Positions 323 through 58,490 of a stretch of DNA of 64,000 bases are shown here, in pieces. This DNA comes from Tubulanus polymorphus (taxonomy: Eukaryota; Animalia; Nemertea): NCBI RefSeq assembly GCF_964204645.1, contig NC_134028.1:1-64000 (forward strand). Direction: 5' to 3'. The stretch's first letter is position 1. Each line of letters opens with the position of its first letter. The notes below the pieces were generated by a model. That model was not told where the DNA came from and did no database searches. It was given only the letters and a program-made list of their open reading frames with translations. Both the position numbers and the translations under genes were made by a program.

Positions 323-436
323 TTTACAGGGATAACCCGCTGCCCGTGCACTAGTGGGGTCTCCAAACCTTCGGTTTGGTCCCCTAACCTCTATCTCTAA
401 ACCTAACCTTAGCCCGTGCCAGGTTTCCCTCGTAAA
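323..436 (+). ncRNA. Family A 3' structured RNA element enclosing a telomere-like segment (also 6677-6790, 13031-13144, 19384-19497, 28885-28998, 35136-35249, 41387-41500; cut at CCTAACC in 25733-25818 and 47638-47723)
   Basis: Pairings by eye: TTTAC-AGGGA-AACC (323-337) with GGTT-TCCCT-GTAAA (422-436); GCCCGTGC at 342-349 and 412-419; GGGG..CCAAA cTTCGg TTTGG..CCCC hairpin 356-384; TAACCTCTATCTCTAAACCTAACC 385-408. Confidence 0.65.
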
Positions 437-2582: not shown

Positions 2583-2590
2583 TATAAAAA
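2583..2590 (+). promoter_or_regulatory. TATA box of family A (also 8937, 15287, 21639, 31054, 37305, 43556)
   Basis: TATAAAAA ~44 nt before the hammerhead; family B has TATAAAGA at the equivalent place; the copy at 60377 begins exactly 30 nt after the TATA position. Confidence 0.6.
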
Positions 2591-2613
2591 CCCGTGTCTA
2601 ATCCTAGTTCAGC

Positions 2614-4185
2614 ATGATTCCTGCACTGACACTGACGAAGGCAACCTCGCCGAAATATCTGTCAATGGAGCGATCTACTCGAAAGAAGAAACGACCACCA
2701 GCTGAGAAGACCAGCAAGGGCGGAGGACGCCCTGAGCGACACCAGCAACCCGGGATGTCGCCGAAAACCTATTATAGAGCTCTTCAAGTGGCGCACCACC
2801 TTGCCCAGTTGAGCTCTGGTCCGAAAGCGATTCGGAGGAAGAAGGACCATCTGAAGATGTTCCTGCGGCCGGCGGCTTGCACCGAAGCAGTAACGGTGCA
2901 GCTGCACGCTGCCGCGGACGTCTGGATGGAGACAGTTTCGAAAGAGCTGACCATCCATTACGCTGCCACATTTGTTGAGCTAATGGGTGATCCTCTGCCG
3001 GACTGTCTATCAGCACAGGATGTCGCCCTGACATGGGCCCGGAGGAATTTCGGCTCCCGTCTGAGCCCCGGAACGATCCGGCTTTTCAACATCGCGCTGG
3101 ATTTGCGGTCGAAATTCCGCGGTCAGGCTCTGTCTGACAAACTCAGAAATGTCCTATCTAACCCACCTTCTTCCCCTTCTCATTTCAGGTCACACCACCA
3201 GGAGGCACCCACGGAGCCGAAGATTCGTCCGCCGCCGAGACCGAGCCGGAAGATTCGAAAGCCCGCGACGCCGAGGACGCCTGCACCAACCGCAGTCGCG
3301 CCCGCCGCGCCCACAGCGCCTCCTTCTTTTTCTGATTCCAGGTCACCGAGAAGCTACGCGGATGTCACCAGGACGCCACCAACCAGAATGGCGCCACCAC
3401 CGAGAAGTCCGATGCCGACGCCGCCGCCGCCGCCACCAAGAAGTCCGACGCCACCGAGAAGTCCGACGCCGCCGCCTCGAAACCCGACGCCGCCGCCGCC
3501 GCCGCCGCCGCAGAGAACGCCGACCGCACCAACCAGCAGTCCGACGCCGTCTCTCTCTTCTTCTCTTTCCAGCTCTCCGTCTCATTACAGGTCACCAGGG
3601 CGCCTACTGCCAGCGCGAAGTCCGACGCCTACACCGAGACCGATGGCGCCCCAGGAAGTTCGCCGTCATCCGAATACGGGTCGGAAGAAACAGGATTGGA
3701 GTCTGCCACCAACCCGGCGACCCATTCTGGTGATTGGTGACTCAAATCTGAGTAACATCACATCAAGCCGCCGTCCGGATGACGTCCAGATCGAGAGCTT
3801 CCCCGGCTGCAAGATAGCTCATCTCGCCGACCTGATCGATGCTGTACCGGAGCGCCGAGATCGCCCGGATACGGTGATCATCAGCGTCGGAATCAACAAC
3901 CGCGACAACAACTTCGAAGCGACCGCCAAGAAGACCACACAGCGCCTGATCAACGCCGCAGTCAAGAAGTATCAGCACTCGTTCGTCCACTTCGTTCAAC
4001 TCAACACGACCCGCGAACACCAGCAGTTCGCCCGGAAGTTCAACGAATTCCTCGAGATTCACGACGACGTCACCGCGATACCACCCATCGATGATCGACG
4101 CTTCAGAGTTGTTGGAGACGGGATCCACTGGAACCGTGGTACAGCTAACACCCTGCTGGACCACTGGCTCAGTGGTTTAAACTAA
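2614..4185 (+). CDS. Family A ORF1: helical N-terminal domain, Pro/Ser/Arg-rich linker, SGNH/GDSL esterase (true start probably ATG 2665)
   Basis: SGNH blocks ILVIGDSN, FPG, IISVGINN, DGIHW; homologous to family B ORF1. Confidence 0.9.
   Translation: MIPALTLTKATSPKYLSMERSTRKKKRPPAEKTSKGGGRPERHQQPGMSPKTYYRALQVAHHLAQLSSGPKAIRRKKDHLKMFLRPAACTEAVTVQLHAAADVWMETVSKELTIHYAATFVELMGDPLPDCLSAQDVALTWARRNFGSRLSPGTIRLFNIALDLRSKFRGQALSDKLRNVLSNPPSSPSHFRSHHQEAPTEPKIRPPPRPSRKIRKPATPRTPAPTAVAPAAPTAPPSFSDSRSPRSYADVTRTPPTRMAPPPRSPMPTPPPPPPRSPTPPRSPTPPPRNPTPPPPPPPQRTPTAPTSSPTPSLSSSLSSSPSHYRSPGRLLPARSPTPTPRPMAPQEVRRHPNTGRKKQDWSLPPTRRPILVIGDSNLSNITSSRRPDDVQIESFPGCKIAHLADLIDAVPERRDRPDTVIISVGINNRDNNFEATAKKTTQRLINAAVKKYQHSFVHFVQLNTTREHQQFARKFNEFLEIHDDVTAIPPIDDRRFRVVGDGIHWNRGTANTLLDHWLSGLN
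2627..2664 (+). ncRNA. Minimal type I hammerhead ribozyme, family A
   Basis: TGACA-CTGACGA-A-GGC aacctc GCC-GAAA-TA-TC-TGTCA: stem I TGACA/TGTCA, stem II GGC/GCC, conserved core, predicted cleavage after C2659. Confidence 0.85.
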
Positions 4186-4212
4186 GTATTAGTGAGACCA
4201 ACGGGTCCACTA
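4176..4212 (+). promoter_or_regulatory. Predicted -1 ribosomal frameshift signal, family A (heptamer also at 10530, 16883, 23232, 26384, 32635, 38886, 45137, 61934)
   Basis: T TTA AAC in ORF1 phase directly before TAA; hairpin TAGTG-a-GACC aacg GGTC-CACTA 7 nt downstream; -1 frame is open into ORF2. Confidence 0.75.
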
Positions 4213-6641
4213 TTGGTGAGTTAAATCAACCGGAATTAACCAATGCTTCTCTGATTTCTTCCATTTCCAGGTCCGACGAACACGAAGAACCGGCACCAAA
4301 CCAAGCGCGACGCGATCCGGTCACCGCTCTCGGGAGCCCGGTGGTCAACCTCACACGTTCACTCCGCCTAAGTCCGGCGCAACATCAGCTACTCCGAAAG
4401 GGCCTCACTTATTGCCCGACTCCAAAAATCGGTTCTGATGCCGCCGCGACCGAGCGCACCAAGGGAGTGTGCCGATTCAACCGGCTAGTGAAACTCGACC
4501 ATCACTTCCGAGACAAACCGGACCGCGAGGCTCCGCGTTTCCGTCTGCCCAGCAGTTGGGCTCCGGATGAAATAGAACCAGTAATCGCCGGGTTCTGCAA
4601 CGACGCGCACGAATTGGCTCAACAAACCAGGGATACGCGTCGCGTAAATGATAACCTCACTAAACAGGAACGCGAAGCCCTCCAGCAGCTGCGTGACAAC
4701 ACTAATATTGTCATCAAAGCCGCCGATAAGGGTTCCGCTACGGTTATCATGGACCGCGACGACTACGTCCACGAAGCCATGCGCCAACTAGCCGATCTCG
4801 AGTATTATCAGCCGCTGCAGCAACCGATCTTCGAACAGACCGGGGAAGAAATTCGCGAAATCATCGAAAATATGGCTCGACGAAAAATCATCCCGCTAAA
4901 AACCGCCGAATATCTATTACCGCCCGATAATCCGAAACAGAGGCAGTTCTATCTGCTTCCCAAAATCCATAAAGAACGCGAGAAGTGGACGATACCCGAT
5001 CGCGTACCGCCGGGGAGACCGATCGTCTCCGACTGCGGCTCCGAAACCTACGAAATTTCGGAATGGATCGACTACTATTTGCAGCCGATCGCCCGCGGTC
5101 ACCCGTCGTACGTCAAAGATACCAACCACTTTCTAGATATTTTGGCCGGTAAACAATTTAGCGCCGATGCGTTACTCGTCACCATGGACATCGATTCGCT
5201 CTACACCAACATCCCCCACGAAGAGGGTATCGCCAGCATCCGACAAGCTCTCCGAGATAACCCGAACCCGGGACGCCCGGATGCCGAGCTGCTGAAACTA
5301 CTCGAAATCAGCCTGAAGAAAAATGACTTTAACTTTAACGAAAACACATATTTACAGGTAAAAGGTACCGCAATGGGTAAGCGTTTTGCTCCTTCTTATG
5401 CCAATATCTTTGTAGCCGAATGGGAAAAAGAAGGTCTGTCCAGAAGCGAACTCCAACCATCGCTATACGCTCGGTTCATCGACGACATCTACATAGTTTG
5501 GGAACACGGCCGCGAAACGTTGATGCAATTCATCGACGTCCTACAAACAGTGAGCCGATCCATCAAACTCAAGTTCGAAATCAGCGACACCAGCGTCAAC
5601 TTCCTGGACGTAACCACTTTCAAAGGCCCGCGATTCGAGACAAGTGGCACAGTAGACACCAAAGTCTACTTCAAACCAACCGATTCGCATCAATTACTAC
5701 ATCGATCCTCGTTTCACCCTAAACACACATTTTCCGGTATAGTTAAAAGTCAAATTCTCCGGTTCCGGCGCATCTGCAATAACGATTCGGACTTACACGC
5801 AGCGTCCGGAACCGTCCTTAAAGTACTCAGAGGTCGTGGCTACAAAGACCGCGAACTGCGACACATCAAAAGCCAAGCTCTACGGCACCACGCCGAACGA
5901 GATCTACGAGAACAACAACGGGCCGACGAACCGCCGAAAAAGCGTTTACCGCTTATCTTACCTCACTCCGAAGCCAACCGAACCCTAGCCCGTAACATCC
6001 GAACCAGATTTACGGAACTGGCTACGGCCACCGGCCGGTCTGACGAGGTAACCACGGTCACCGCCTACACCAAGCACAAGAGTCTCAAAGATCTCCTAAC
6101 TTCGTCGCAGCTCAAACCCACGGAGCCACCCCCTCCCCGAGTCCCCTCTTCACCGCATCGTAACAGAAATACTTCCGTTGTTTCCAATTCTTCTATTTCC
6201 AGGTCTACTCAAAGAACTCCGTCAACCCGACGTCGAGGCACCGAGAAATGCAGAACACCGAGATGTCGTACGTGTCCACTCGTCCGAGAAACAACCGTTT
6301 GCCGCAGCCACAACAAAATGCACGCGATCCGCAGCACAATTAATTGCGCGACCCGTGAAATTGTATACTGCATCGAATGCACCAAGTGCAACATGCTGTA
6401 CGTCGGCCAAACCGGAATGTCTCTACGAGAACGCGTCACTCATCACGTCTCACGCATCAGAACGAAGAATTCGACTCCAGTCTCGGACCACTTCAACCAA
6501 GTCGACCACACCCGCGAACACTTTCGGGTGTACGGTCTCCAACACCTACCAGGCTCCACGAGACCGATCCGCGAAGCAGCCGAACAAGACTGGATACGAC
6601 GACTCGACACGAACACGCCCCGAGGCATGAACGTCCCGTAG
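4176..6641 (+). CDS. Family A ORF2: PLE reverse transcriptase + C-terminal GIY-YIG endonuclease (frame open from slippery site; ORF track start GTG 4341)
   Basis: KAADKG, RPIVS, MDIDSLYTNI, GTAMG..FAPSYANIF, RFIDDI, NFLD; Cys linker CRTPRCRTC; IVY..YVGQT..R..H..E..N. Confidence 0.95.
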   Translation, partial: FKLSISETNGSTIGELNQPELTNASLISSISRSDEHEEPAPNQARRDPVTALGSPVVNLTRSLRLSPAQHQLLRKGLTYCPTPKIGSDAAATERTKGVCRFNRLVKLDHHFRDKPDREAPRFRLPSSWAPDEIEPVIAGFCNDAHELAQQTRDTRRVNDNLTKQEREALQQLRDNTNIVIKAADKGSATVIMDRDDYVHEAMRQLADLEYYQPLQQPIFEQTGEEIREIIENMARRKIIPLKTAEYLLPPDNPKQRQFYLLPKIHKEREKWTIPDRVPPGRPIVSDCGSETYEISEWIDYYLQPIARGHPSYVKDTNHFLDILAGKQFSADALLVTMDIDSLYTNIPHEEGIASIRQALRDNPNPGRPDAELLKLLEISLKKNDFNFNENTYLQVKGTAMGKRFAPSYANIFVAEWEKEGLSRSELQPSLYARFIDDIYIVWEHGRETLMQFIDVLQTVSRSIKLKFEISDTSVNFLDVTTFKGPRFETSGTVDTKVYFKPTDSHQLLHRSSFHPKHTFSGIVKSQILRFRRICNNDSDLHAASGTVLKVLRGRGYKDRELRHIKSQALRHHAERDLREQQRADEPPKKRLPLILPHSEANRTLARNIRTRFTELATATGRSDEVTTVTAYTKHKSLKDLLTSSQLKPTEPPPPRVPSSPHRNRNTSVVSNSSISRSTQRTPSTRRRGTEKCRTPRCRTCPLVRETTVCRSHNKMHAIRSTINCATREIVYCIECTKCNMLYVGQTGMSLRERVTHHVSRIRTKNSTPVSDHFNQVDHTREHFRVYGLQHLPGSTRPIREAAEQDWIRRLDTNTPRGMNVP

Positions 6642-12995: not shown

Positions 12996-15317
12996 ACCGC
13001 CTCACTACAACAATTAACTCTCACTACTTTTTTACAGGGATAACCCGCTGCCCGTGCACTAGTGGGGTCTCCAAACCTTCGGTTTGGTCCCCTAACCTCT
13101 ATCTCTAAACCTAACCTTAGCCCGTGCCAGGTTTCCCTCGTAAATTATCTTAACTGATTAATTATTAATCATCAATCTATTTGCAGAATCATCCTCCGTC
13201 GCCTGAAGCAGAAACCCGCTCAGAGACAGAGTACAAAACAAACTCCAAGATCACAAGCTCCACAGGAATCATCAACCTTTTATCTTTTAATTAGTTCTCT
13301 CTGCTTTACTTTGAAAACTCAATCGAAATTCAGTAAGTAAGAAGACAGACCAAATATCAGAAACAGTTAGAAAAATAAACAAAAGCGCGATATCGGGAAC
13401 CGAACCCTAACCGCTAGTACAGACTGGTTGCCTGTCCCAGGACGATAGAAACCGGTAACCAGTCCACCGCTATTATCTATTTCGAAAATATGCGTCAGCA
13501 CTGAGATTATATCATAGAAACACCCGAAAAGTATTAATTAATCTATTATAAATTTAGAAAGAAAGGGAATCTAGAATAGGTAAGAATATACTCAATTACT
13601 AAAACGGCGCGCCTGATCGGGACTCGAACCCGCGGCACCCGAATTAAGCTCCGGAGAATACTCGGGAACCGTACCCGCCGCTCCGAAATTAACCGCTAGT
13701 ACTGACGGGTTGCCGGTGCCCCGCGTTAGATACCGGTAACCAGTCCACCGCTCTTATTTATTTTGAAAATATGCGTCGGCACTAAGATTATATCGTAGAA
13801 ACATCTGAAAAGTACTATTGTATCCGTCAAAGATTCAGAATTAAAAGGAATCCAGAATAGGTAAAAAACATTTAGAATAGAACTATTCAATTACTAAACG
13901 GCGCCTGGTCGGGACTCGAACCCGCGGCACCCTAATTAACCTCCGTTTAATCTATAACGTTCGGTCGGGGACCTAACCCGCTACGTCCTAATTAACTATT
14001 ATCGTATCTACGCGCCAACTCTTGGAACATACTCTATATAGATCCGGGTGTCAAGTTTCAAATTTCTCTAAAACAGACAGTTTATTTTCGGATAACAATT
14101 CTAATGAGATCGCTCAAAAGTATTAATAGCTATATTCAAAAACCGCACTATAGGTTGTAGAAGTATAAGAAGTTTATAGGATAAATAATAGTCCACGGAC
14201 ATCAATCACTGTTTACAAGTCACTCATAATTAGTGACCGATCGGCCACCTGCGCCTCTTGACTAATTATCCGACTCAATTCTATACAAAATCGCAGTTAC
14301 GACGCCTTCAAACTCATCGGTTTTTCTCAAAGAACACAGCCCAATATTCCCGATTCAAAAAGAGTTTTATATCCCGTATATATTTCAACCTTCGGATTAA
14401 AGAAGAGATCATAGTGTTTTTGAACCACTCAAACTACGCAAGCTTAAACCGATTTACTGAATACCCGCGCTCCGGTCTGAATATATTTGTCACATGTTCA
14501 AGTTCACATAGCTTTACTCGATCCTAATAACTCTAAATAAGCGTAGTTTATCTAATAGAATTATATTTAAGAACTTAGAATTAAAACAGACGTATTAGTA
14601 AGACATTTCTATCAAAACTCGTCACCCATAATTAGGGCTAATTAACCACCCGCGCTCACTCAGTAATTTAGATCTTACGGGTTATAACTTCCTACTAAAT
14701 CGCCGACGCCGCGCTGTCTAATTCATCCAATTTTCGGTAGAATACCGCGTAGATATTTCAAAATCCGCTCTTAAAAGCTTTAGAATACGGAGAAAACTTG
14801 ATTAACTAAGAACCGGATTTCACCATTTACGACTATTTAGTAAACACGCGTATATCGGAATACGCCTCGGCCGCGCACCGCTAATTAACGCGTCTAAACT
14901 AATTAGGAATTAAGCAATTTTGAAACTGAACTCGGACATATTTCGAACATTCCGGTTCACGTATATTAATAATACATATTCTAGATTTCTCTTTATAGAA
15001 AACACTTTGAGTATTAGGTTATATCGAAATAAACTTTTCAATTCTATATTAGACACGCCGTTCTTTAGATCTTTAGAACTATACATCAAAGCAAACTATT
15101 CAACAGCTAGATCAAGGGCCATAATTAGTGCTGTTTTCTAGTCACTCTGGATCAAAGGCATAATTAGTCAGACCCCTAGTTTGTCTATTAGCTTGATCAC
15201 AGAAGTACAATTAGTCTAGATCACAAGGTCTCATATGGTCACTTAACTTCTAACTCAAATACTGTTCACTTGTTGCGCGCTGCGTGTATAAAAACCCGTG
15301 TCTAATCCTAGTTCAGC

Positions 15318-16892
15318 ATGATTCCTGCACTGACACTGACGAAGGCAACCTCGCCGAAATATCTGTCAATGGAGCGATCTACTCGAAAGAAGAAACGACC
15401 ACCAGCTGAGAATACCAGCAAGGGCGGAGGACGCCCTGAGCGACACCAGCAACCCGGGATGTCGCCGAAAAATTACTATAGAGCTCTTCAAGTGGCGCAC
15501 CACCTTGCCCAGTTGAGCTCTGGTCCGAAAGCGATTCGGAGGAAGAAGGACCATCTGAAGATGTTCCTGCGGCCGGCGGCTTGCACCGAAGCAGTAACGG
15601 TGCAGCTGCACGCTGCCGCGGACGTCTGGATGGAGACAGTTTCGAAAGAGCTGACCATCCATTACGCTGCCACATTTGTTGAGCTAATGGGTGATCCTCT
15701 GCCGGACTGTCTATCAGCACAGGATGTCGCCCTGACATGGGCCCGGAGGAATTTCGGCTCCCGTCTGAGCCCCGGAACGATCCGGCTTTTCAACATCGCG
15801 CTGGATTTGCGGTCGAAATTCCGCGGTCAGGCTCTGTCTGACAAACTCAGAAATGTCCTATCTAACCCACCTTCTTCCCCTTCTCATTTCAGGTCACACC
15901 ACCAGGAGGCACCCACGGAGCCGAAGATTCGTCCGCCGCCGAGACCGAGCCGGAAGATTCGAAAGCCCGCGACGCCGAGGACGCCTGCACCAACCGCAGC
16001 CGCGCCCGCCGCGCCCGCCGCGCCCACAGCGCCTCCTTCTTTTTCTGATTCCAGGTCACCGAGAAGCTACGCGGATGTCACCAGGACGCCACCAACCAGA
16101 ATGGCGCCACCACCGAGTAGCCCGATGCCGACGCCGCCGCCGCCGCCACCAAGAAGTCCGACGCCACCGAGAAGTCCGACGCCGCCGCCTCGAAACCCGA
16201 CGCCGCCGCCGCCGCCGCAGAGAACGCCGACCGCACCAACCAGCAGTCCGACGCCGTCTCTCTCTTCTTCTCTTTCCAGCTCTCCGTCTCATTACAGGTC
16301 ACCAAGGCGCCTACTGCCAGCGCGAAGTCCGACGCCAACACCGAGACCGATGGCGCCCCAGGAAGTTCGCCGTCATCCGAAGACGGGTCGGAAGAAACAG
16401 GATTGGAGTCTGCCACCAACCCGGCGACCCATTCTGGTGATTGGTGACTCAAATCTGAGTAACATCACATCAAGCCGCCGTCCGGATGACGTCCAGATCG
16501 AGAGCTTCCCCGGCTGCAAGATAGCTCATCTCGCCGACCTGATCGATGCTGTACCGGAGCGCCGAGATCGCCCGGATACGGTGATCATCAGCGTCGGAAT
16601 CAACAACCGCGACAACAACTTCGAAGCGACCGCCAAGAAGACCACACAGCGCCTGATCAACGCCGCAGTCAAGAAGTATCAGCACTCGTTCGTCCACTTC
16701 GTTCAACTCAACACGACCCGCGAACACCAGCAGTTCGCCCGGAAGTTCAACGAATTCCTCGAGATTCACGACGACGTCACCGCGATACCACCCATCGATG
16801 ATCGACGCTTCAGAGTTGTTGGAGACGGGATCCACTGGAACCGTGGTACAGCTAACACCCTGCTGGACCACTGGCTCAGTGGTTTAAACTAA
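15318..16892 (+). CDS. Family A ORF1 (524 aa variant)
   Basis: Same motifs; in-frame indels in the Pro-rich linker. Confidence 0.9.
   Translation: MIPALTLTKATSPKYLSMERSTRKKKRPPAENTSKGGGRPERHQQPGMSPKNYYRALQVAHHLAQLSSGPKAIRRKKDHLKMFLRPAACTEAVTVQLHAAADVWMETVSKELTIHYAATFVELMGDPLPDCLSAQDVALTWARRNFGSRLSPGTIRLFNIALDLRSKFRGQALSDKLRNVLSNPPSSPSHFRSHHQEAPTEPKIRPPPRPSRKIRKPATPRTPAPTAAAPAAPAAPTAPPSFSDSRSPRSYADVTRTPPTRMAPPPSSPMPTPPPPPPRSPTPPRSPTPPPRNPTPPPPPQRTPTAPTSSPTPSLSSSLSSSPSHYRSPRRLLPARSPTPTPRPMAPQEVRRHPKTGRKKQDWSLPPTRRPILVIGDSNLSNITSSRRPDDVQIESFPGCKIAHLADLIDAVPERRDRPDTVIISVGINNRDNNFEATAKKTTQRLINAAVKKYQHSFVHFVQLNTTREHQQFARKFNEFLEIHDDVTAIPPIDDRRFRVVGDGIHWNRGTANTLLDHWLSGLN
15331..15368 (+). ncRNA. Minimal hammerhead ribozyme, family A
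   Basis: Same sequence as 2627-2664. Confidence 0.85.
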
Positions 16893-19348
16893 GTATTAGT
16901 GAGACCAACGGGTCCACTATTGGTGAGTTAAATCAACCGGAATTAACCAATGCTTCTCTGATTTCTTCCATTTCCAGGTCCGACGAACACGAAGAACCGG
17001 CACCAAACCAAGCGCGACGCGATCCGGTCACCGCTCTCGGGAGCCCGGTGGTCAACCTCACACGTTCACTCCGCCTAAGTCCGGCGCAACATCAGCTACT
17101 CCGAAAGGGCCTCACTTATTGCCCGACTCCAAAAATCGGTTCTGATGCCGCCGCGACCGAGCGCACCAAGGGAGTGTGCCGATTCAACCGGCTAGTGAAA
17201 CTCGACCATCACTTCCGAGACAAACCGGACCGCGAGGCTCCGCGTTTCCGTCTGCCCAGCAGTTGGGCTCCGGATGAAATAGAACCAGTAATCGCCGGGT
17301 TCTGCAACGACGCGCACGAATTGGCTCAACAAACCAGGGATACGCGTCGCGTAAATGATAACCTCACTAAACAGGAACGCGAAGCCCTCCAGCAGCTGCG
17401 TGACAACACTAATATTGTCATCAAAGCCGCCGATAAGGGTTCCGCTACGGTTATCATGGACCGCGACGACTACGTCCTCGAAGCCATGCGCCAACTAGCC
17501 GATCTCGAGTATTATCAGCCGCTGCAGCAACCGATCTTCGAACAGACCGGGGAAGAAATTCGCGAAATCATCGAAAATATGGCTCGACGAAAAATCATCC
17601 CGCTAAAAACCGCCGAATATCTATTACCGCCCGATAATCCGAAGCAGAGGCAGTTCTATCTGCTTCCCAAAATCCATAAAGAACGCGAGAAGTGGACGGT
17701 ACCCGATCGCGTACCGCCGGGGAGACCGATTGTCTCCGACTGCGGCTCCGAAACCTACGAAATTTCGGAATGGATCGACTACTATTTGCAGCCGATCGCC
17801 CGCGGTCACCCGTCGTACGTCAAAGATACCAACCACTTTCTAGATATTTTGGCCGGTAAACAATTTAGCGCCGATGCGTTACTCGTCACCATGGACATCG
17901 ATTCGCTCTACACCAACATCCCCCACGAAGAGGGTATCGCCAGCATCCGACAAGCTCTCCGAGATAACCCGAACCCGGGACGCCCGGATGCCGAGCTGCT
18001 GAAACTACTCGAAATCAGCCTGAAGAAAAATGACTTTAACTTTAACGAAAACACATATTTACAGGTAAAAGGTACCGCAATGGGTAAGCGTTTTGCTCCT
18101 TCTTATGCCAATATCTTTGTAGCCGAATGGGAAAAAGAAGGTCTGTCCAGAAGCGAACTCCAACCATCGCTATACGCTCGGTTCATCGACGACATCTACA
18201 TAGTTTGGGAACACGGCCGCGAAACGTTGATGCAATTCATCGACGTCCTACAAACAGTGAGCCGATCCATCAAACTTAAATTCGAAATCAGCGACACCAG
18301 CGTCAACTTCCTGGACGTAACCACTTTCAAAGGCCCGCGATTCGAGACAAGTGGCACAGTAGACACCAAAGTCTACTTCAAACCAACCGATTCGCATCAA
18401 TTACTACATCGATCCTCGTTTCACCCTAAACACACATTTTCCGGTATAGTTAAAAGTCAAATTCTCCGGTTCCGGCGCATCTGCAATAACGATTCGGACT
18501 TACACGCAGCGTCCGGAACCGTCCTTAAAGTACTCAGAGGTCGTGGCTACAAAGACCGCGAACTGCGACACATCAAAAGCCAAGCTCTACGGCACCACGC
18601 CGAACGAGATCTACGAGAACAACAACGGGCCGACGAACCGCCGAAAAAGCGTTTACCGCTTATCTTACCTCACTCCGAAGCCAACCGAACCCTAGCCCGT
18701 AACATCCGAACCAGATTTACGGAACTGGCTACGGCCACCGGCCGGTCTGACGAGGTAACCACGGTCACCGCCTACACCAAGCACAAGAGTCTCAAAGATC
18801 TCCTAACTTCGTCGCAGCTCAAACCCACGGAGCCACCCCCTCCCCGAGTCCCCTCTTCACCGCATCGTAACAGAAATACTTCCGTTGTTTCCAATTCTTC
18901 TATTTCCAGGTCTACTCAAAGAACTCCGTCAACCCGACGTCGAGGCACCGAGAAATGCAGAACACCGAGATGTCGTACGTGTCCACTCGTCCGAGAAACA
19001 ACCGTTTGCCGCAGCCACAACAAAATGCACGCGATCCGCAGCACAATTAATTGCGCGACCCGTGAAATTGTATACTGCATCGAATGCACCAAGTGCAACA
19101 TGCTGTACGTCGGCCAAACCGGAATGTCTCTACGAGAACGCGTCACTCATCACGTCTCACGCATCAGAACGAAGAATTCGACTCCAGTCTCGGACCACTT
19201 CAACCAAGTCGACCACACCCGCGAACACTTTCGGGTGTACGGTCTCCAACACCTACCAGGCTCCACGAGACCGATCCGCGAAGCAGCCGAACAAGACTGG
19301 ATACGACGACTCGACACGAACACGCCCCGAGGCATGAACGTCCCGTAG
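16883..19348 (+). CDS. Family A ORF2 RT + GIY-YIG
   Basis: Intact, two amino acid changes vs first copy (track start 17048). Confidence 0.95.
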   Translation, partial: FKLSISETNGSTIGELNQPELTNASLISSISRSDEHEEPAPNQARRDPVTALGSPVVNLTRSLRLSPAQHQLLRKGLTYCPTPKIGSDAAATERTKGVCRFNRLVKLDHHFRDKPDREAPRFRLPSSWAPDEIEPVIAGFCNDAHELAQQTRDTRRVNDNLTKQEREALQQLRDNTNIVIKAADKGSATVIMDRDDYVLEAMRQLADLEYYQPLQQPIFEQTGEEIREIIENMARRKIIPLKTAEYLLPPDNPKQRQFYLLPKIHKEREKWTVPDRVPPGRPIVSDCGSETYEISEWIDYYLQPIARGHPSYVKDTNHFLDILAGKQFSADALLVTMDIDSLYTNIPHEEGIASIRQALRDNPNPGRPDAELLKLLEISLKKNDFNFNENTYLQVKGTAMGKRFAPSYANIFVAEWEKEGLSRSELQPSLYARFIDDIYIVWEHGRETLMQFIDVLQTVSRSIKLKFEISDTSVNFLDVTTFKGPRFETSGTVDTKVYFKPTDSHQLLHRSSFHPKHTFSGIVKSQILRFRRICNNDSDLHAASGTVLKVLRGRGYKDRELRHIKSQALRHHAERDLREQQRADEPPKKRLPLILPHSEANRTLARNIRTRFTELATATGRSDEVTTVTAYTKHKSLKDLLTSSQLKPTEPPPPRVPSSPHRNRNTSVVSNSSISRSTQRTPSTRRRGTEKCRTPRCRTCPLVRETTVCRSHNKMHAIRSTINCATREIVYCIECTKCNMLYVGQTGMSLRERVTHHVSRIRTKNSTPVSDHFNQVDHTREHFRVYGLQHLPGSTRPIREAAEQDWIRRLDTNTPRGMNVP

Positions 19349-25697: not shown

Positions 25698-25811
25698 ACC
25701 GCCTCACTACAACAATTAACTCTCACTACTTTTTTACAGGGATAACCCGCTGCCCGTGCACTAGTGGGGTCTCCAAACCTTCGGTTTGGTCCCCTAACCT
25801 CTATCTCTAAA

Positions 25812-25904
25812 CCTAACCCTAACCCTAACCCTAACCCTAACCCTAACCCTAACCCTAACCCTAACCCTAACCCTAACCCTAACCCTAACCCTAACCCTAA
25901 CCCT
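25812..25904 (+). repeat. Telomeric repeat tract (CCCTAA)n, ~15.5 units (TTAGGG on minus strand)
   Basis: CCTAA + 14 perfect CCCTAA + CCCT. Confidence 0.98.
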
Positions 25905-47602: not shown

Positions 47603-47716
47603 ACCGCCTCACTACAACAATTAACTCTCACTACTTTTTTACAGGGATAACCCGCTGCCCGTGCACTAGTGGGGTCTCCAAACCTTCGGTTTGGTCCCCT
47701 AACCTCTATCTCTAAA

Positions 47717-47816
47717 CCTAACCCTAACCCTAACCCTAACCCTAACCCTAACCCTAACCCTAACCCTAACCCTAACCCTAACCCTAACCCTAACCCTAAC
47801 CCTAACCCTAACCCTA
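47717..47816 (+). repeat. Telomeric repeat tract (CCCTAA)n, ~16.5 units
   Basis: CCTAA + 15 perfect CCCTAA + CCCTA. Confidence 0.98.
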
Positions 47817-49472
47817 CGACGACAACCACAGACAGCAGCCGCCGAACAACCAGTACAACAACCACAGACAGCAGCCACAGTACTACGACGACAACCACAG
47901 ACAGCAGCAACAAAACAACCGCCGTAACAACCGCAGGAAGCAGGCGCGAAACAACAACAGCGACCACAGACAGCAGCCGCGCAACAACGACAGCAACCAC
48001 AGACAACAACCACAACAACACCAGCTCAACCAAAACCGCCGGTCCACGTACCAGGGGCCCCCCGACGGCCTGCTGAAAAACGCAATACAGTCGCACTACC
48101 GCGCTATCCAAGCCATTCAGCACTACCTGAATGTCAACGAAAAATTACCGCCAGGCCTGCTCCGTCAGCAGCAAAACCTGGTTCACAACATCAGACCGGC
48201 CAGCATGACACCAGAAACCGCGCAACACATCCGCGACGCAGCCTCCGAATGGGGCAAATCTATTCACGCGATTCTACGCGAACACCACTTCGCGACCGTT
48301 ATGCACGAATTCAACTACATGAGTTCGATTCCCGCGCCAGTGAAATCGCCCTCAAGTGGGCACGAAAAAACTTCGGAAAACGCCTCCGAAACCCTACGCT
48401 CGCGTTGTACGACCGTTGCAACGCTATCCGACGCGACACGCCGTCCGGCGAGAATCGACTCGCCGGCCTAATCGCGACCTTAAACGCAGGTCCGCCCGCC
48501 GTTGATACATACGCACAGCCGCAACCTATGTGGGTAGCGACCCCACCTGTCCAACAGACAGCCGCTATAGTCATTCCGACTCCGCCTCCACAACCGAGAG
48601 CAACCACCGCGGTTGCCACAGCAACGCCAAACACTCCACGCGCCGCCACACGGAATTCACTCTCCATCGCAGCCAACCAGCAGACTCCGAAACGTCCAAA
48701 GACGAATAAACCGCAACAACCACTGATCGCGACCGCCGCGACGCCGCCAAACGCGCCAATATCGCAACAAACCGCCACAGTGTACGATCAAACACTGGAC
48801 TTTAGTAACATCAGCGCGTGCCCCGTGAGCTCGCCCGCCGTTAATCGCAGCTACGCCGAGGTCGTAGCCACACCTGACCGCTCTACGGAACCCGCCGAAA
48901 ACAACACATACACGCCCGGACCAGCGATGCCACAACCGGTAAGAACCCACCAGAAAACGACACACAAAGTGAAAGAATGGATAATCCCTGAAACCGAAAG
49001 GGAAATCGTCATCCTTGGGGATTCCAACCTCAACCGCATCACATCAAGCCACGATCCGGACGGGGTACAAATCGAGTGTTTCCCCGGCGCGAAAATCAAA
49101 CATTTGCGAGAATTACTAGCGAAAAAGATTCCGGACCGCGCCCAACCGGACCATGTAATTGTCTCGATCGGCATCAACGACCGAGATAACAGTTTCGAAA
49201 ATACAACCAGCGACAATCTGAAAAAACTGATATCCACGACACAGAAAGTGTACAACCAAGCCAGCGTCCATTTCGTGTGTCTAAACTCAATTGCGCGGTA
49301 TCAACCATACGCGGATAAAGTGAACAATATCATACGGGACTACGCGGAACATTACATTCCGCCTATCGCCAGCAGTGAATTCGGAGTCAACCCGGATGAC
49401 GATATTCACTGGACCGAATACACGGCGAACACACTACTCAACCACTGGCTGGAAACCGTAAAAAACGAATAG
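47814..49472 (+). pseudogene. 5'-truncated, frameshifted family B ORF1
   Basis: Starts inside the Q/N repeat; AACTACATG at ~48316 vs AACTTACATG in intact copies (1-bp deletion). Confidence 0.85.
49460..49466 (+). promoter_or_regulatory. Predicted -1 slippery heptamer, family B (also 54973-54979)
   Basis: A AAA AAC in ORF1 phase, one codon before TAG; -1 frame is open into ORF2. Confidence 0.7.
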
Positions 49473-52065: not shown

Positions 52066-52186
52066 GTGGAAAATAGGCAAATATTTTTCTGTTGCCTGAG
52101 CACCGGGGGTGCAAACCCCCAACCTCTATCCCTAAAACCTAACCCAGCCTGAGCCGGAAAAATATTGTCCTATAATTCATTTCCAC
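52066..52186 (+). ncRNA. Family B 3' structured RNA element with telomere-like segment (also 57579-57699)
   Basis: GTGGAAA/TTTCCAC, ATAGG/CCTAT, AATATTTTTC/GAAAAATATT stems; GCCTGAGC at 52094 and 52147; GGGGGT-GCAA-ACCCCC hairpin; AACCTCTATCCCTAAAACCTAACCC. Confidence 0.65.
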
Positions 52187-52977: not shown

Positions 52978-53016
52978 AGTTACTGACGAAGATACAATCA
53001 ATCGAAACGTTTAACT
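52978..53016 (+). ncRNA. Minimal type I hammerhead ribozyme, family B
   Basis: AGTTA-CTGACGA-A-GAT acaatca ATC-GAAA-CG-TT-TAACT: stem I AGTTA/TAACT, stem II GAT/ATC; predicted cleavage after 53011. Confidence 0.85.
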
Positions 53017-53020
53017 AACG

Positions 53021-54985
53021 ATGAGGTATAACAACCAACCGTACTACCGCGGCAGGGAGCTGACCCCGGATCGCCGCCGGCCTACCAACCAGAGCCGAAA
53101 CCGAAACAGCAACAACCAAGGACCACCACATCCACACCAGAACGTTGACAGCTACAACCACAGACAACAGCCGCGAAATAAACGCAGAAACAACAACAAC
53201 CACAGACAGCAGCCGCGGAACGACCAGTACAACAACCACAGACAGCAGCCACAGTACTACGACGACAACCACAGACAGCAGCCGCCGAACAACCAGTACA
53301 ACAACCACAGGCAGCAGCCACAGTACTACAACGACAACCACAGACAGCAGCCGCCGAACAACCAGAATAACAACCACAGACAGCAGCCACAGTACTACGA
53401 CGACAACCACAGACAGCAGCAACAAAACAACCGCCGTAACAACCGCAGGAAGCAGGCGCGAAACAACAACAGCGACCACAGACAGCAGCCGCGCAACAAC
53501 GACAGCAACCACAGACAACAACCACAACAACACCAGCTCAACCAAAACCGCCGGTCCACGTACCAGGGGCCCCCCGACGGCCTGCTGAAAAACGCAATAC
53601 AGTCGCACTACCGCGCTATCCAAGCCATTCAGCACTACCTGAATGTCAACGAAAAATTACCGCCAGGCCTGCTCCGTCAGCAGCAAAACCTGGTTCACAA
53701 CATCAGACCGGCCAGCATGACACCAGAAACCGCGCAACACATCCGCGACGCAGCCTCCGAATGGGGCAAATCTATTCACGCGATTCTACGCGAACACCAC
53801 TTCGCGACCGTTATGCACGAATTCAACTTACATGAGTTCGATTCCCGCGCCAGTGAAATCGCCCTCAAGTGGGCACGAAAAAACTTCGGAAAACGCCTCC
53901 GAAACCCTACGCTCGCGTTGTACGACCGTTGCAACGCTATCCGACGCGACACGCCGTCCGGCGAGAATCGACTCGCCGGCCTAATCGCGACCTTAAACGC
54001 AGGTCCGCCCGCCGTTGATACATACGCACAGCCGCAACCTATGTGGGTAGCGACCCCACCTGTCCAACAGACAGCCGCTATAGTCATTCCGACTCCGCCT
54101 CCACAACCGAGAGCAACCACCGCGGTTGCCACAGCAACGCCAAACACTCCACGCGCCGCCACACGGAATTCACTCTCCATCGCAGCCAACCAGCAGACTC
54201 CGAAACGTCCACAGACGAATAAACCGCAACAACCACTGATCGCGACCGCCGCGACGCCGCCAAACGCGCCAATATCGCAACAAACCGCCACAGTGTACGA
54301 TCAAACACTGGACTTTAGTAACATCAGCGCGTGCCCCGTGAGCTCGCCCGCCGTTAATCGCAGCTACGCCGAGGTCGTAGCCACACCTGACCGCTCTACG
54401 GAACCCGCCGAAAACAACACATACACGCCCGGACCAGCGATGCCACAACCGGTAAGAACCCACCAGAAAACGACACACAAAGTGAAAGAATGGATAATCC
54501 CTGAAACCGAAAGGGAAATCGTCATCCTTGGGGATTCCAACCTCAACCGCATCACATCAAGCCACGATCCGGACGGGGTACAAATCGAGTGTTTCCCCGG
54601 CGCGAAAATCAAACATTTGCGAGAATTACTAGCGAAAAAGATTCCGGACCGCGCCCAACCGGACCATGTAATTGTCTCGATCGGCATCAACGACCGAGAT
54701 AACAGTTTCGAAAATACAACCAGCGACAATCTGAAAAAACTGATATCCACGACACAGAAAGTGTACAACCAAGCCAGCGTCCATTTCGTGTGTCTAAACT
54801 CAATTGCGCGGTATCAACCATACGCGGATAAAGTGAACAATATCATACGGGACTACGCGGAACATTACATTCCGCCTATCGCCAGCAGTGAATTCGGAGT
54901 CAACCCGGATGACGATATTCACTGGACCGAATACACGGCGAACACACTACTCAACCACTGGCTGGAAACCGTAAAAAACGAATAG
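53021..54985 (+). CDS. Family B ORF1: Q/N-rich repeats, helical domain, Pro/Thr/Ala linker, SGNH esterase
   Basis: IVILGDSN, CFPG, IVSIGIND, DDIHW; WARKNFG domain shared with family A. Confidence 0.9.
   Translation: MRYNNQPYYRGRELTPDRRRPTNQSRNRNSNNQGPPHPHQNVDSYNHRQQPRNKRRNNNNHRQQPRNDQYNNHRQQPQYYDDNHRQQPPNNQYNNHRQQPQYYNDNHRQQPPNNQNNNHRQQPQYYDDNHRQQQQNNRRNNRRKQARNNNSDHRQQPRNNDSNHRQQPQQHQLNQNRRSTYQGPPDGLLKNAIQSHYRAIQAIQHYLNVNEKLPPGLLRQQQNLVHNIRPASMTPETAQHIRDAASEWGKSIHAILREHHFATVMHEFNLHEFDSRASEIALKWARKNFGKRLRNPTLALYDRCNAIRRDTPSGENRLAGLIATLNAGPPAVDTYAQPQPMWVATPPVQQTAAIVIPTPPPQPRATTAVATATPNTPRAATRNSLSIAANQQTPKRPQTNKPQQPLIATAATPPNAPISQQTATVYDQTLDFSNISACPVSSPAVNRSYAEVVATPDRSTEPAENNTYTPGPAMPQPVRTHQKTTHKVKEWIIPETEREIVILGDSNLNRITSSHDPDGVQIECFPGAKIKHLRELLAKKIPDRAQPDHVIVSIGINDRDNSFENTTSDNLKKLISTTQKVYNQASVHFVCLNSIARYQPYADKVNNIIRDYAEHYIPPIASSEFGVNPDDDIHWTEYTANTLLNHWLETVKNE
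53153..53530 (+). repeat. Coding minisatellite (30-33 bp units, core CAACCACAGACAGCAGCC) encoding NHRQQP repeats (also 58666-59043; partial 47814-48018)
   Basis: About ten NHRQQ[P/Q]-type units in ORF1B. Confidence 0.9.
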
Positions 54986-57375
54986 CTTCAGAAGCCAAAC
55001 AGCCCGTAAGTAAGATTATTCTTACCCCAAAACCAGACTCTTATCCCATCCCCAGACAGGCCCCTATCGTTAATCCCGCACCAGTCACCCTAAGTGACCA
55101 ATCAAAACGGACGGCATTAGGCACCTCAGTTCTAAATCTCTCAAAAAAAACCCAACTCTCCTCGGGCCAGAGAAAACTACTAGAAAGGGGCTTATCCTAC
55201 TGCCCCAGACCACCCAACGCACCCGACCGGGACGCTAAAGATAGATTACAATCCCTTACGGACTTTAATAGACGGGTAATCTTAAATTATCATTTCAAAG
55301 ACAATACCCCAGGCATCGCCCCCAAATTCCGTCTGCCCTCGGGTTGGACCCCCGACGAAATAAACCCCGAAATATTGAATTTCTGTCAAAAAAACATAGA
55401 GTCAGCCCAGAGCGCGCAACCTATCCCTGAGAGAAATAATCTGACAACCGAGGAAAAGACAGCCCTCAGACAATTGAAACAGAACCCCGACATCATTATA
55501 AAACCTGCCGACAAGGGCTCCACAACAGTAATCATGGACCGCGAAGACTACTTACTCGAGGCCCAAAACCAACTAAATAATCCGACGTACTACCGCAAAC
55601 TGGACGCCCCTATATATCGCGAGACACAACAGTATATCCACGAAACAGTTGATAATATGCGCCGGCGGAACGTCATCACTCGTAAAACCGCGCAGTATTT
55701 AAAACACCCTCCGGAACCCCGACCGAGACTATTCTATCTACTACCCAAAATTCACAAAAACCCCGACAAATGGACAGTACCCAATGAAATTCCTCCCGGC
55801 CGCCCTATCGTATCAGATTGCAGTAGTGAATCTTACCACACTGCAGCCTGGATCGATCACTTCCTACAACCTTTAGCCTCTGGACACCCATCTTACCTGA
55901 AAGATACCACACATTTCCTTGAGACAATCCAACAGCAGACCCTGAGCCCCGACTCCATCCTCGTCACCCTAGACATTAGCTCTCTATATACCAATATTGG
56001 TCACGACGACGGGCTCCGAGCGGTAAGAAACACATTCGCCGCTCACCCCGATCCAGATAGGCCCGATAATGATATATTAAAACTCCTGGAAATAAGCCTG
56101 AAAAATAATGATTTTGAATTGAATGGGGATTATTATTTACAAACCAAAGGGACGGCCATGGGCAAGAAATTCGCCCCCTCATACGCGAATATTTTCGTAG
56201 CCGAATGGGAGACAGCCGCCCTGGCCAAATCACCTCTACAACCATCCCTCTATAAGAGGTTTATTGACGATATATTCCTCATATGGGAACACGGGGAAGA
56301 AGAACTTACCACCTTCCTAGACATACTACAGACTCACCACGCGTCTATTGACCTGACCTGGGAGATTGACAAGCAATCCGCAAATTTCTTAGATACTACA
56401 GTGTTCAAGGGCCCGCGCTTTGACGCACTCCGTATCCTTGACTCTAAAATATTCTTCAAACCGACAGATTCCCACCAACTTCTTCACACTAGCTCATTTC
56501 ATCCCCGACACACTTTCGCTGGAGTCCTCAAGAGCCAGCTTCTCCGATACAGGAGAATCTGCAATAACGACGCTGACTTCCACGCGGCCACCAAGACACT
56601 TTTCACCTCCCTGCGACAGCGAGGCTACGCTGACCGCACGCTGAGATACGCCAAGTCCCGTATCCTGAAAAACACAAACAATGACGATAAGGGGGAGGCC
56701 GAACAGGACGTAAAAATTCCCCTCATCCTCCCACACAACCGCACTAATAAATTACTATCATATCAAATTAAACATCAATTCACTCAATTACTATCCGAAA
56801 CCGCACGTACCGATCCAATCCGCATCATCACGGCCTACTCCAAACATAAAAACCTAAAAGATATACTAACATCCACAAAACTACACCCTGTAATCCACAC
56901 TGACAACACAAATAACGCTACAACGGCCCCGGGACCCAATATCTACACAAGACGCCCGGGTACGTACTGCTGTAATCAACCGCGTTGCCAAACATGTAAA
57001 CACATCATAAACAAAAGATCCATAAAAAATAACGAACAGACATCTCGAATACACAGTCACTTCACCTGCAACTCAAAACAACTAATTTATGCCATCACAT
57101 GTAATAAATGTCACGTATTATACGTCGGACAGACGGGAAATACTCTCAAACAAAGATTCACAAACCACATATCCTGCATCAAAAATGACCTCCCGACCCC
57201 AGTAGCTAAACACTTTAATTCAGCGGCCCACACCCTTCAAAACATCAATATATTTGGAATCCAATCAATCCCGGACTCGGACCAGAAACTCAGGGAAACC
57301 GCCGAAAGCTATTGGATAAACCATTTAAATACTATGATACCAAACGGCCTGAACGAAAGAGAAATGCACCCGTAA
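54973..57375 (+). CDS. Family B ORF2 RT + GIY-YIG
   Basis: Intact; one change (DYLL vs DYIL) relative to the first B copy (track start 55375). Confidence 0.95.
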   Translation, partial: KKRIASEAKQPVSKIILTPKPDSYPIPRQAPIVNPAPVTLSDQSKRTALGTSVLNLSKKTQLSSGQRKLLERGLSYCPRPPNAPDRDAKDRLQSLTDFNRRVILNYHFKDNTPGIAPKFRLPSGWTPDEINPEILNFCQKNIESAQSAQPIPERNNLTTEEKTALRQLKQNPDIIIKPADKGSTTVIMDREDYLLEAQNQLNNPTYYRKLDAPIYRETQQYIHETVDNMRRRNVITRKTAQYLKHPPEPRPRLFYLLPKIHKNPDKWTVPNEIPPGRPIVSDCSSESYHTAAWIDHFLQPLASGHPSYLKDTTHFLETIQQQTLSPDSILVTLDISSLYTNIGHDDGLRAVRNTFAAHPDPDRPDNDILKLLEISLKNNDFELNGDYYLQTKGTAMGKKFAPSYANIFVAEWETAALAKSPLQPSLYKRFIDDIFLIWEHGEEELTTFLDILQTHHASIDLTWEIDKQSANFLDTTVFKGPRFDALRILDSKIFFKPTDSHQLLHTSSFHPRHTFAGVLKSQLLRYRRICNNDADFHAATKTLFTSLRQRGYADRTLRYAKSRILKNTNNDDKGEAEQDVKIPLILPHNRTNKLLSYQIKHQFTQLLSETARTDPIRIITAYSKHKNLKDILTSTKLHPVIHTDNTNNATTAPGPNIYTRRPGTYCCNQPRCQTCKHIINKRSIKNNEQTSRIHSHFTCNSKQLIYAITCNKCHVLYVGQTGNTLKQRFTNHISCIKNDLPTPVAKHFNSAAHTLQNINIFGIQSIPDSDQKLRETAESYWINHLNTMIPNGLNEREMHP

Positions 57376-58490
57376 GGTGACGACCACTCACTCACACGCC
57401 ATCTATCACTATCACAAACAAACACACACAGTTCACTCGCGTCAAAAACAGACGCTCAAACAAACTATCACCCGGCTCGAGCGCTATTGCGCTGCCGCCT
57501 AAATATACGGACACGAGCCCGCAACCAATCGAACAAACGACGGTATATCAAGCTCTCAAATCACTTTCCAAACTTTCCGTGGAAAATAGGCAAATATTTT
57601 TCTGTTGCCTGAGCACCGGGGGTGCAAACCCCCAACCTCTATCCCTAAAACCTAACCCAGCCTGAGCCGGAAAAATATTGTCCTATAATTCATTTCCACA
57701 TATCTCTAAAAACTGATCCACCACACGGATCACTCGACAGCTAGGCAGCTATCTTAAAAAAGCACGAGTTCACTCAGCACATTTTTTTATCCAATATAAG
57801 GAAACAAACGTCGAGCACATGTCAACCGCTCTTTTTATTTCAACATGTTTTCGAATAGATTCGATCGCCGAATCATCCTGAAATGATGACGCAAACAATT
57901 ATTCTCTCGGAAAAAATTTTTTTTATTTAGTAAAGACGAACGAATATCAACACGCTATGACTACACTATTCTCGGCATATTTTCAATTAGTTTCGACCCC
58001 CAGCAAGGGCGCTCTCTTTATAAACATGATTTCTTTCAACATATTTTATTATTTGATATATGGGAACGAACGGCAAATACGCCATAGCTGCACTTTCATT
58101 TCGACATATTTTTTAGATCCGTTTCTCCGGGTCGCCCGCAGCAAGGACGCTCTCTTGTAAAAACACAAGGATTCTCACATAAAATATTTTATTTTTACTC
58201 ATCAAAACCTCATCCCCAGTAACGGTTCTCACGAACAGCGGAGTCTCTCACCCGGAAGTTCGCACCTCGACGTCCAGGCAGGGTATGACGCCCATGACTA
58301 ATTATCAAAATTAGCGCCAGCACAGCGACATAGAGCACGCCCGACCAATGCATTACGTTCATAGGGCCCCTATGTCGCTGTACATTAGTCTCCTATGCCC
58401 TAATACATTGGACTAATTACGCGACCGAGACACACCCCCAAGCCCGACTATAAAGACCGGCCCGAAAACTCCACTGTCCTAGAATCCTTC

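Follow-up and report, generated by a model that had tools for sequence, protein, structure and literature searches.

A doubled-box 3′ fold as a probable scaffold for a target-priming guide in endonuclease-bearing Penelope-like elements

Architecture of the locus

The window (the whole stretch analysed, positions 1 to 64,000 of NC_134028.1 from Tubulanus polymorphus) is occupied almost wholly by head-to-tail copies of two retroelement families, A and B, all on the plus strand. The repeat unit measures 6,354 bp in family A (6,251 bp in its middle array) and 5,513 bp in family B. Two perfect (CCCTAA)n tracts of 14–15 units each lie between the arrays; this tract length, together with the single orientation throughout, is compatible with a left chromosome end, short of proof.

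In family A, ORF1 (2608..4185, plus strand, first ATG at 2665) has no Pfam match of its own; its C-terminal region, also common to relatives, resembles by motif the GDSL/SGNH domain of B ORF1. ORF2 (4149..6641, plus strand) encodes a reverse transcriptase (RT), a CX4CxxC linker and a GIY-YIG endonuclease with a CCHH motif, and its stop lies 36 nt before the start of the next fold. The B counterparts are ORF1 (53015..54985, plus strand; Pfam Lipase_GDSL_2, E 1.8e-6, under the curated cut-off) and ORF2 (54913..57375, plus strand; upstream copy 49400–51862), which combines RT, CX4CxxC and GIY-YIG and is 50% identical to A ORF2. Both ORF2 proteins score above the cut-off for Pfam RVT_1, and for GIY-YIG they reach 27.0 bits (B) and 21.1 bits (A, just below 22.6). 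CCHH motif and CX4CxxC linker are present in ORF2 of both families, and the endonuclease motifs look intact. The closest protein match to A ORF2, 97% identical over 71% of its length, is labelled Tubulanus polymorphus; a PDB sequence search with the ORF2 profile gave no match. By domain architecture as defined in PMC8557442, A and B are endonuclease-bearing, Neptune/Nematis-type Penelope-like elements (PLEs). They also display the tandem or partial-tandem layout with a hammerhead-like motif, the latter by pattern only.

This motif, a minimal type I hammerhead-like pattern match, sits directly before ORF1 in A (2628..2664, plus strand), with an equivalent before ORF1 in B (52978–53016); its class is taken from PMC4209133, and neither example has an Rfam match in the window search. 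Nearby, a TATA-like box at 2583 precedes a recurrent 5′ end of A copies at 2613 (2583..2613, plus strand). The A copy at 60377 begins at unit position 2613, 30 nt past the TATA-like box, and position 2613 is the likely transcription start of A. Slippery heptamers occur in phase just before the ORF1 stops (T TTA AAC at 4176–4182; A AAA AAC at 54973–54979), ORF2 sits in the −1 frame relative to ORF1, and in A a stem-loop is predicted downstream of the heptamer; ORF1 and ORF2 are thus likely to be fused through programmed frameshifting, as judged from these signals.

The arrays record some internal exchange. The left A array (12996–19348) is a mosaic: units 1 and 2 are identical, and unit 3 changes type somewhere from unit position 1937 to 2266, close to a 4-nt deletion. 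The three units of the middle A array differ at one position. The A spacer holds an 80%-identical direct repeat of ~250 bp (700–945 and 982–1237). At 60370–60377 the B array starts within ORF1; 6 additional bases, free of telomeric repeats, link it to an A copy at that copy's likely transcription start. This junction is probably a template jump between families.

A doubled box inside a closed 3′ fold

Downstream of ORF2, each family carries a fold of the same layout on the plus strand, and all four features that a preliminary description had reported of it were recovered at the stated coordinates. In A (323–436), closing-stem arms at 323..337 and 420..436, in which 323–337 faces 422–436 with one bulge per arm, appear in both the RNAfold minimum-free-energy and centroid structures. 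They enclose box 1 (342..349, GCCCGTGC), a G-run/C-run hairpin with a UUCG loop (356..384; optional, not conserved across relatives), a loop end (385..408) and box 2 (412..419, GCCCGTGC). The B fold (52066..52186) comprises a closing stem with internal loops, likewise formed by RNAfold, whose 5′ arm is at 52066–52089 and 3′ arm at 52157–52186, box 1 at 52094–52101, a GCAA-capped G-run/C-run hairpin at 52105–52120, a loop end at 52121–52145 and box 2 at 52147–52154. The segment AACCTCTATC..CCTAACC, common to A (386–408) and B (52121–52144), follows the hairpin as described; it holds a 7–8-nt perfect match to the telomere and is predicted to be single-stranded (unpaired probability 0.81 in A and 0.98 in B). 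Its CCTAACC (402–408 in A) would be the annealing and priming window, as the joints at 25818 and 47723 and read breaks at 408–415 suggest.

The A 5′ flank pairs with its own 3′ flank at −15.4 kcal/mol, the best among 23 partners. Whole-fold z-scores are −2.06 in A, where 8 of 200 shuffles did as well, and −3.82 in B, where none of 200 did. The preliminary description had the 8-nt box, repeated on both arms, pair with itself. The doubling holds in both families; the self-pairing is weak, with four outer Watson-Crick pairs, two mismatches and two central pairs (C-G in A, G-U in B), and the duplex is open in the RNAfold centroid of A and B (outer-pair probabilities 0.07–0.40).

All seven intact A copies share one fold sequence (further box 1 positions 6696, 13050, 19403, 28904, 35155 and 41406, plus strand), as do both B copies (second fold 57579..57699, plus strand), so that the window holds only two independent fold sequences. 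Covariation between A and B, which had been claimed, cannot be shown from two sequences whose stems have no sequence in common. Rfam returned nothing at gathering score over the window, the fold included, and only chance matches in the fold region (E 0.2–9); the fold thus corresponds to none of the known ribozyme, SECIS or telomerase models. A SECIS element was also rejected by eye, since the fold lacks a conserved UGA/GA quartet and the ORFs are free of in-frame stops.

Some reads and one contig share the A boxes and guide, and leave the A sequence at 380 (87 reads) and 423 (81 reads); what follows is absent from the window (region 336–423). These reads probably represent a third family with a different hairpin and closing stem.

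Junctions with telomeric repeats

Two A copies in the window are cut at the loop end. The first (25733..25903, plus strand) has its joint at 25818, continues into ~14 CCCTAA repeats and is followed by a 5′-truncated A copy from 25904; the second (47638..47813, plus strand) has its joint at 47723, continues into ~15 CCCTAA repeats and is followed by a 5′-truncated B copy from 47814. Both tracts abut the A 3′ UTR at the position equal to 408, the end of CCTAACC, 3 nt before box 2. The RNA-specific AAA directly upstream of CCTAACC is kept at both joints, which confines the switch from target to element to 402–408. Healing by telomerase can account for a tract on truncated 5′ ends; it cannot account for the guide joint, which, inferred from telomerase polarity, lies distal to the tract. 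The tracts are perfect CCCTAA, unlike the degenerate loop, and the loop-primed A copies contain the hairpin, box 1 and ORF2. Family A, specifically, thus shows the Athena/Coprina-type joint: attachment to telomeric repeats through a reverse-complementary stretch, with 5′ truncations capped by repeats. The only 3′ junction of the B array in the window (60370) lies inside ORF1, away from the guide.

Raw reads from a different sample and study (9,214 reads on A from ~12% of the run; family A alone) point the same way. Depth falls from ~1,200 over 60–356 to ~230 beyond 455: most A copies in this second sample stop near the guide end. Loose read ends accumulate at 408 (183, mixed sequence) and at 415 (213, telomeric repeats), with T>C at 409 in 288 of 724 reads; elsewhere, 81 reads leave at 423, and ~100 join 437–465 back into ORF2 or the UTR, so that some copies end just past the closing stem. 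Further joints lead from 415 to 2613/2614, the start 30 nt after the TATA-like box, and 12 reads at a joint from 408 to 1040 show a duplicated guide 12-mer. The earlier proposal that the fold presents CCUAACC to the 3′ end of the telomeric G-strand is therefore supported by both window joints, by hundreds of reads and by two unrelated families.

The box pair is conserved across the clade

A query alignment of 36 ORF2 proteins identified 78 metagenome loci (from the best 80 of 220 confirmed stretches) and 8 genome-collection loci, 86 in all (cited here by L numbers), with an ORF1 relative in 59; viral contigs contained no RT relative. The 64 loci with at least 60 nt after the ORF2 stop formed 50 clusters. 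For 16 of the 50, the 150 nt past the ORF2 stop include an exact match to GCCNG(T/A)GC, a pattern derived solely from A and B (mean 0.23, maximum 2 over 200 dinucleotide shuffles); 5 have two copies, and none of the 50 has a match on the reverse strand or in its ORF end. In 22 clusters no box was found in the first 250 nt with one mismatch allowed; several of these carry it 0.3–1.5 kb downstream and some are cut short. When the window was scanned with a box matrix built from 22 relatives, its nine best matches were the 7 A and 2 B folds, with a clear score for A (26.0) and one for B (18.9) inside the best shuffled scores (up to 20.0). Seventeen two-box matches in 16 viral loci had neither an RT nor an ORF1 relative as a neighbour nor, by eye, a repeat-like loop, and were treated as chance.

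Selection by sequence alone gave 20 box pairs in the 86 loci, all sense (30 shuffles: mean 0.27, maximum 2). After dereplication to 12 rows, in which one element stands twice with alternative first boxes, the flanks pair with their own partner at −13.7 kcal/mol versus −5.2 kcal/mol when swapped; the own partner is best in 9 of 12, and none of 100,000 permutations was as good. A hand-curated set of 23, partly selected by pairing energy, gave −15.2 versus −5.65 kcal/mol, with the own partner best in 17. Box pairs were counted in 22 of these, leaving out L077, whose box 1 has an insertion. Standard pairs fill 87 of 88 outer cells (22, 21, 22 and 22 elements at the four outer pairs), A-U or U-A standing in as replacements in L037, L042 and L044; at the four inner positions C·U, A·G, G·A and U·C predominate.

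An alignment of 13 sequences was scored against the named structure. Paired cells amount to 77.6%, compared with 70.5 in shuffles (0 of 500 as high) and 32–42% in slid registers, and double changes occur at 7 of 11 pairs (8 of 500 shuffles), under a control that ignores relatedness. RNAalifold found no consensus structure in the same alignment. A covariance model from 13 short-loop relatives returned 28 matches in the loci, all sense, and none in A or B at E up to 1, probably owing to the inserted hairpins of the latter. Since MAFFT could not anchor long-loop elements, anchored scripted counting was used. Nearest-neighbour models give mean box-pair probabilities of 0.30 and 0.38, and predict the guide to be mostly unpaired in 13 of 25 intact elements. 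The G/C hairpin is missing in 15 of the 25, where loops span 26–35 nt by eye.

The test that A and B cannot provide was thus made on their relatives, which show partner-specific stems and compensatory changes in the boxes. The elements have in common a variable closing stem, the box GCCNG(U/A)GC in duplicate and a loop that terminates at its 3′ side in a short simple repeat. Beyond the preliminary description, the doubled box emerges as the part conserved clade-wide, and the loop sequence changes with the target repeat.

Several observations accompany this survey. In L075/L076 and L080 a two-box fold lies ~1.5 kb past the ORF2 stop, with a hammerhead-like pattern upstream of it; for priming at this site the RNA would have to be circular or an uncleaved read-through. 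A further conserved 3′ hairpin, preceded by TCTC, was seen at L005:4409, L007:4661, L015:4649 and L030:4117, and also at L037:1104, L056:4307, L072:4380 and L075:3098, with a covarying 6-bp stem (CTGAAG/CTTCAG, CTGGAG/CTCCAG, CTGGGG/CCCCAG, CTAGAG/CTCTAG); a similar hairpin may lie at ~497–516 in the window. L079–L086 are PLE contigs within eight records of a bacterial collection, probably animal DNA contaminating bacterial assemblies.

The loop end follows the target repeat

Of 25 intact elements, 20 have a telomere-like sequence or a short simple repeat over the last 15 bases of the loop (shuffle control: mean 4.4, maximum 13), compared with 2 of 25 for the first 15 bases. In relatives the loop-end repeats are telomeric, (CT)n, (TTA)n, (ATAC)n, (GT)n or (AC)n. 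Loci with a single box complement this picture: 9 of the 22, counted without dereplication, enter a simple repeat 14 nt or longer no more than 130 nt on. The corresponding counts are 16 of 520 for control windows and 0 of 12 for two-box loci, and the repeats entered are CCCTAA, ATGT, TAT, TC and ATAC.

The position of the joint recurs. L061 and L062 each have two copies, the upstream one intact and the downstream one cut 3 nt before box 2; in the family formed with L067 and L070, the 3-nt offset holds in three of four comparisons, a 1-nt upstream indel breaking the exact match in the fourth. L018 compared with L023 places the joint at the same offset. Both families retain a non-telomeric base 6–7 nt upstream, as in A, and the joints are seamless overlaps of 6–7 nt in three families. 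In L035, a circular contig, the break falls 1 nt before box 2. The match to the target in L062 and L018 extends for a few bases and gives way to unique DNA, indicating that internal sites are used too; L062, L018 and L040 join short internal matches and microsatellites.

For microsatellite guides, the link between loop and target comes from tree neighbours, no family having both intact and joined forms. Neighbours agree in the repeat for TTA (L005, L030), ATAC (L056, L015) and CT (L027, L031, L040), and one pair differs in unit (ATGT versus GT), a loose agreement only. In this quick tree (73 rows, with 12 near-duplicates and short matches left out and many open forks), telomeric versus microsatellite guides would require at least five changes among 37 rows labelled by eye.

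Proposed mechanism and alternatives

Taken together, these data show the fold to be a conserved RNA element of an endonuclease-bearing, Neptune/Nematis-type PLE clade, which probably serves as a scaffold for a short, swappable target-priming guide. The two boxes would form a symmetric helix, with G-C/C-G pairs around a 4×4 non-canonical loop, that is bound by the RT. The last 6–7 loop bases, before the 3-nt spacer, would anneal to the free 3′ end of a target strand, which would be the telomeric G-strand for A and B and, elsewhere, a repeat nicked by the GIY-YIG domain. The RT would then start inside the RNA and go on to copy the hairpin, box 1 and the ORFs. Telomeric repeats, likely added by telomerase, would cap aborted 5′ ends and become the next target, and read-through RNA, circular RNA or template jumps may yield tandem units that keep the fold intact. 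A broader reading, to which we give a little less than an even chance, is that this clade, widespread among animals, is naturally RNA-programmed: the two-box scaffold would bind a telomerase-related RT, and changing 6–10 RNA bases would retarget insertion from telomeres to any chosen repeat. Such a clade would be a living model of the step from mobile element to telomerase, in which the RT may now and then re-prime on the loop as telomerase does.

Alternatively, the protein itself, through the CX2-5CxxC linker and GIY-YIG domain, may pick the repeat, the fold merely marking RT binding or the start, and the repeat-like loop being a relic of target DNA from past junctions. The linker has been hypothesised to drive microsatellite bias in Neptune (PMC8557442), the endonuclease motifs of A and B look intact, and PAc, a Poseidon-clade PLE of Anolis and the single PLE assayed in vitro, begins copying at internal positions in the absence of homology to the target (PMC11167929). 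We nevertheless regard this as unlikely, as the repeat-like segment lies inside the fold, between conserved boxes and partner-specific stems, so that capture would require the 3′ half to be rebuilt each time, and as the joints are seamless over 6–7 nt in three families. Protein targeting and RNA annealing are compatible with each other. A, B and their relatives resemble Neptune and Nematis in RT, linker of the CX2-5CxxC type, C-terminal GIY-YIG with CCHH, frameshifted ORF1, tandem pLTR structure, hammerhead motif and microsatellite bias; they differ in that the bias there is credited to the protein linker, and the accessible text of PMC8557442 contains no conserved 3′ RNA scaffold or guide. 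With PAc they share an internal start in a structured RNA loop, an uncopied tail and tandem copies, whereas PAc starts at sites lacking target homology and the start here overlaps the target by 6–7 nt (PMC11167929).

A very improbable explanation is that the joints arise at the DNA level, telomere ends invading existing copies by microhomology at the telomere-like 7-mer while the fold serves 3′-end formation or RNA stability. A joint by itself fits an RNA or a DNA template equally, and the copies that end just past the closing stem (437–465) would suit a role at the RNA 3′ end. Yet the recurrent 5′ ends at the likely transcription start and the many 5′ truncations point to RNA intermediates, the motif is strand-specific, and L062, L018 and L040 join short internal matches and microsatellites.

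The guided-priming reading, which we favour, extends a known principle. In the endonuclease-deficient Athena, Coprina and Terminon elements, a C-rich RNA stretch anneals to G-rich ends and a hammerhead acts as the exposing fold (PMC6431247, PMC8557442, PMC13159263). Common to those elements and A/B are a short C-rich telomeric stretch beside a fold, attachment to G-rich ends, 5′-truncated copies with telomeric caps, head-to-tail arrays and a GDSL-type accessory ORF. Here, unlike there, the RT is fused to an intact-looking GIY-YIG, the guide is exposed by a two-box scaffold closed on both sides of it (in A the hammerhead is ~2.2 kb from it), and the guides of relatives can be non-telomeric. In sturgeon, degraded GIY-YIG PLEs flanked by telomere-like repeats have been noted (PMC12031113). 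Annealing-primed attachment to telomeres is thus known from endonuclease-lacking relatives, and no description of the two-box scaffold was found in the accessible main-text literature searched, including the accessible parts of PMC4209133, PMC3124438, PMC2678813, PMC3846280 and bioRxiv 10.64898/2026.07.22.740005.

A ~75-nt conserved element with a defined 6–7-nt priming window makes two questions about PLEs, how they choose their targets and which RNA their telomerase-like RT recognises, directly testable with one protein and short RNAs. Prior work attributed the microsatellite bias of Neptune to protein, and telomere annealing only to endonuclease-lacking clades (PMC8557442, PMC6431247); the present arrays are an animal example of endonuclease-bearing PLEs built on telomeric repeats. 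Should guide swaps redirect priming, the element would be a eukaryotic retrotransposon with specificity set by base pairing, bearing on the origin of telomerase RNA and on tools for RNA-templated gene insertion.

Relation to telomerase RNA

In telomerase RNA, a pseudoknot adjoins the template. Here, by a simple test, the longest complement of the loop end within ~80 nt on either side is 3–5 nt. The preliminary description had likened the fold to a telomerase RNA whose template abuts a boundary helix, and this framing is unsupported in detail: there is neither a pseudoknot partner nor an Rfam match, loop-primed copies contain the hairpin, and 15 of 25 intact elements lack it. The fold therefore works in part like a telomerase RNA and is not one. 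Telomerase RNA is defined by template, boundary and reiteration (PMC12632851). Like telomerase RNA and the DRT10 ncRNA, the fold would serve a TERT-related RT and hold a short single-stranded C-rich segment in a closed structure for annealing to a primer, and as in DRT10 a variable template would sit in a conserved scaffold (PMC12632851). It differs from both as a cis element of an mRNA without a strict 5′ boundary, pseudoknot, or sequence or model match, repeat addition being seen as hints only. That the element is a true homologue or functional equivalent of telomerase RNA, its loop copied repeatedly to add repeats, is scarcely credible despite the sister relation of PLE RTs to TERT (PMC8557442, PMC12632851), the degenerate tandem repeats at loop ends, the tandem loop copies in L033 and the duplicated 12-mer in 12 reads at one joint, given that copies read through the supposed template boundary, that the hairpin is so often missing, that no pseudoknot partner exceeds 5 nt and no Rfam telomerase model matches, and that the window tracts are perfect CCCTAA rather than copies of the degenerate loop.

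Duplications of the loop were seen at several loci. A 51-nt loop segment is present in 4.2 tandem copies at L033:3730–3945, and in L028, L080 and L020 the ORF2 stop is directly followed by tandemly duplicated segments of loop-like or degenerate telomeric sequence; together with the read joint from 408 to 1040, these possibly reflect re-priming on the loop.
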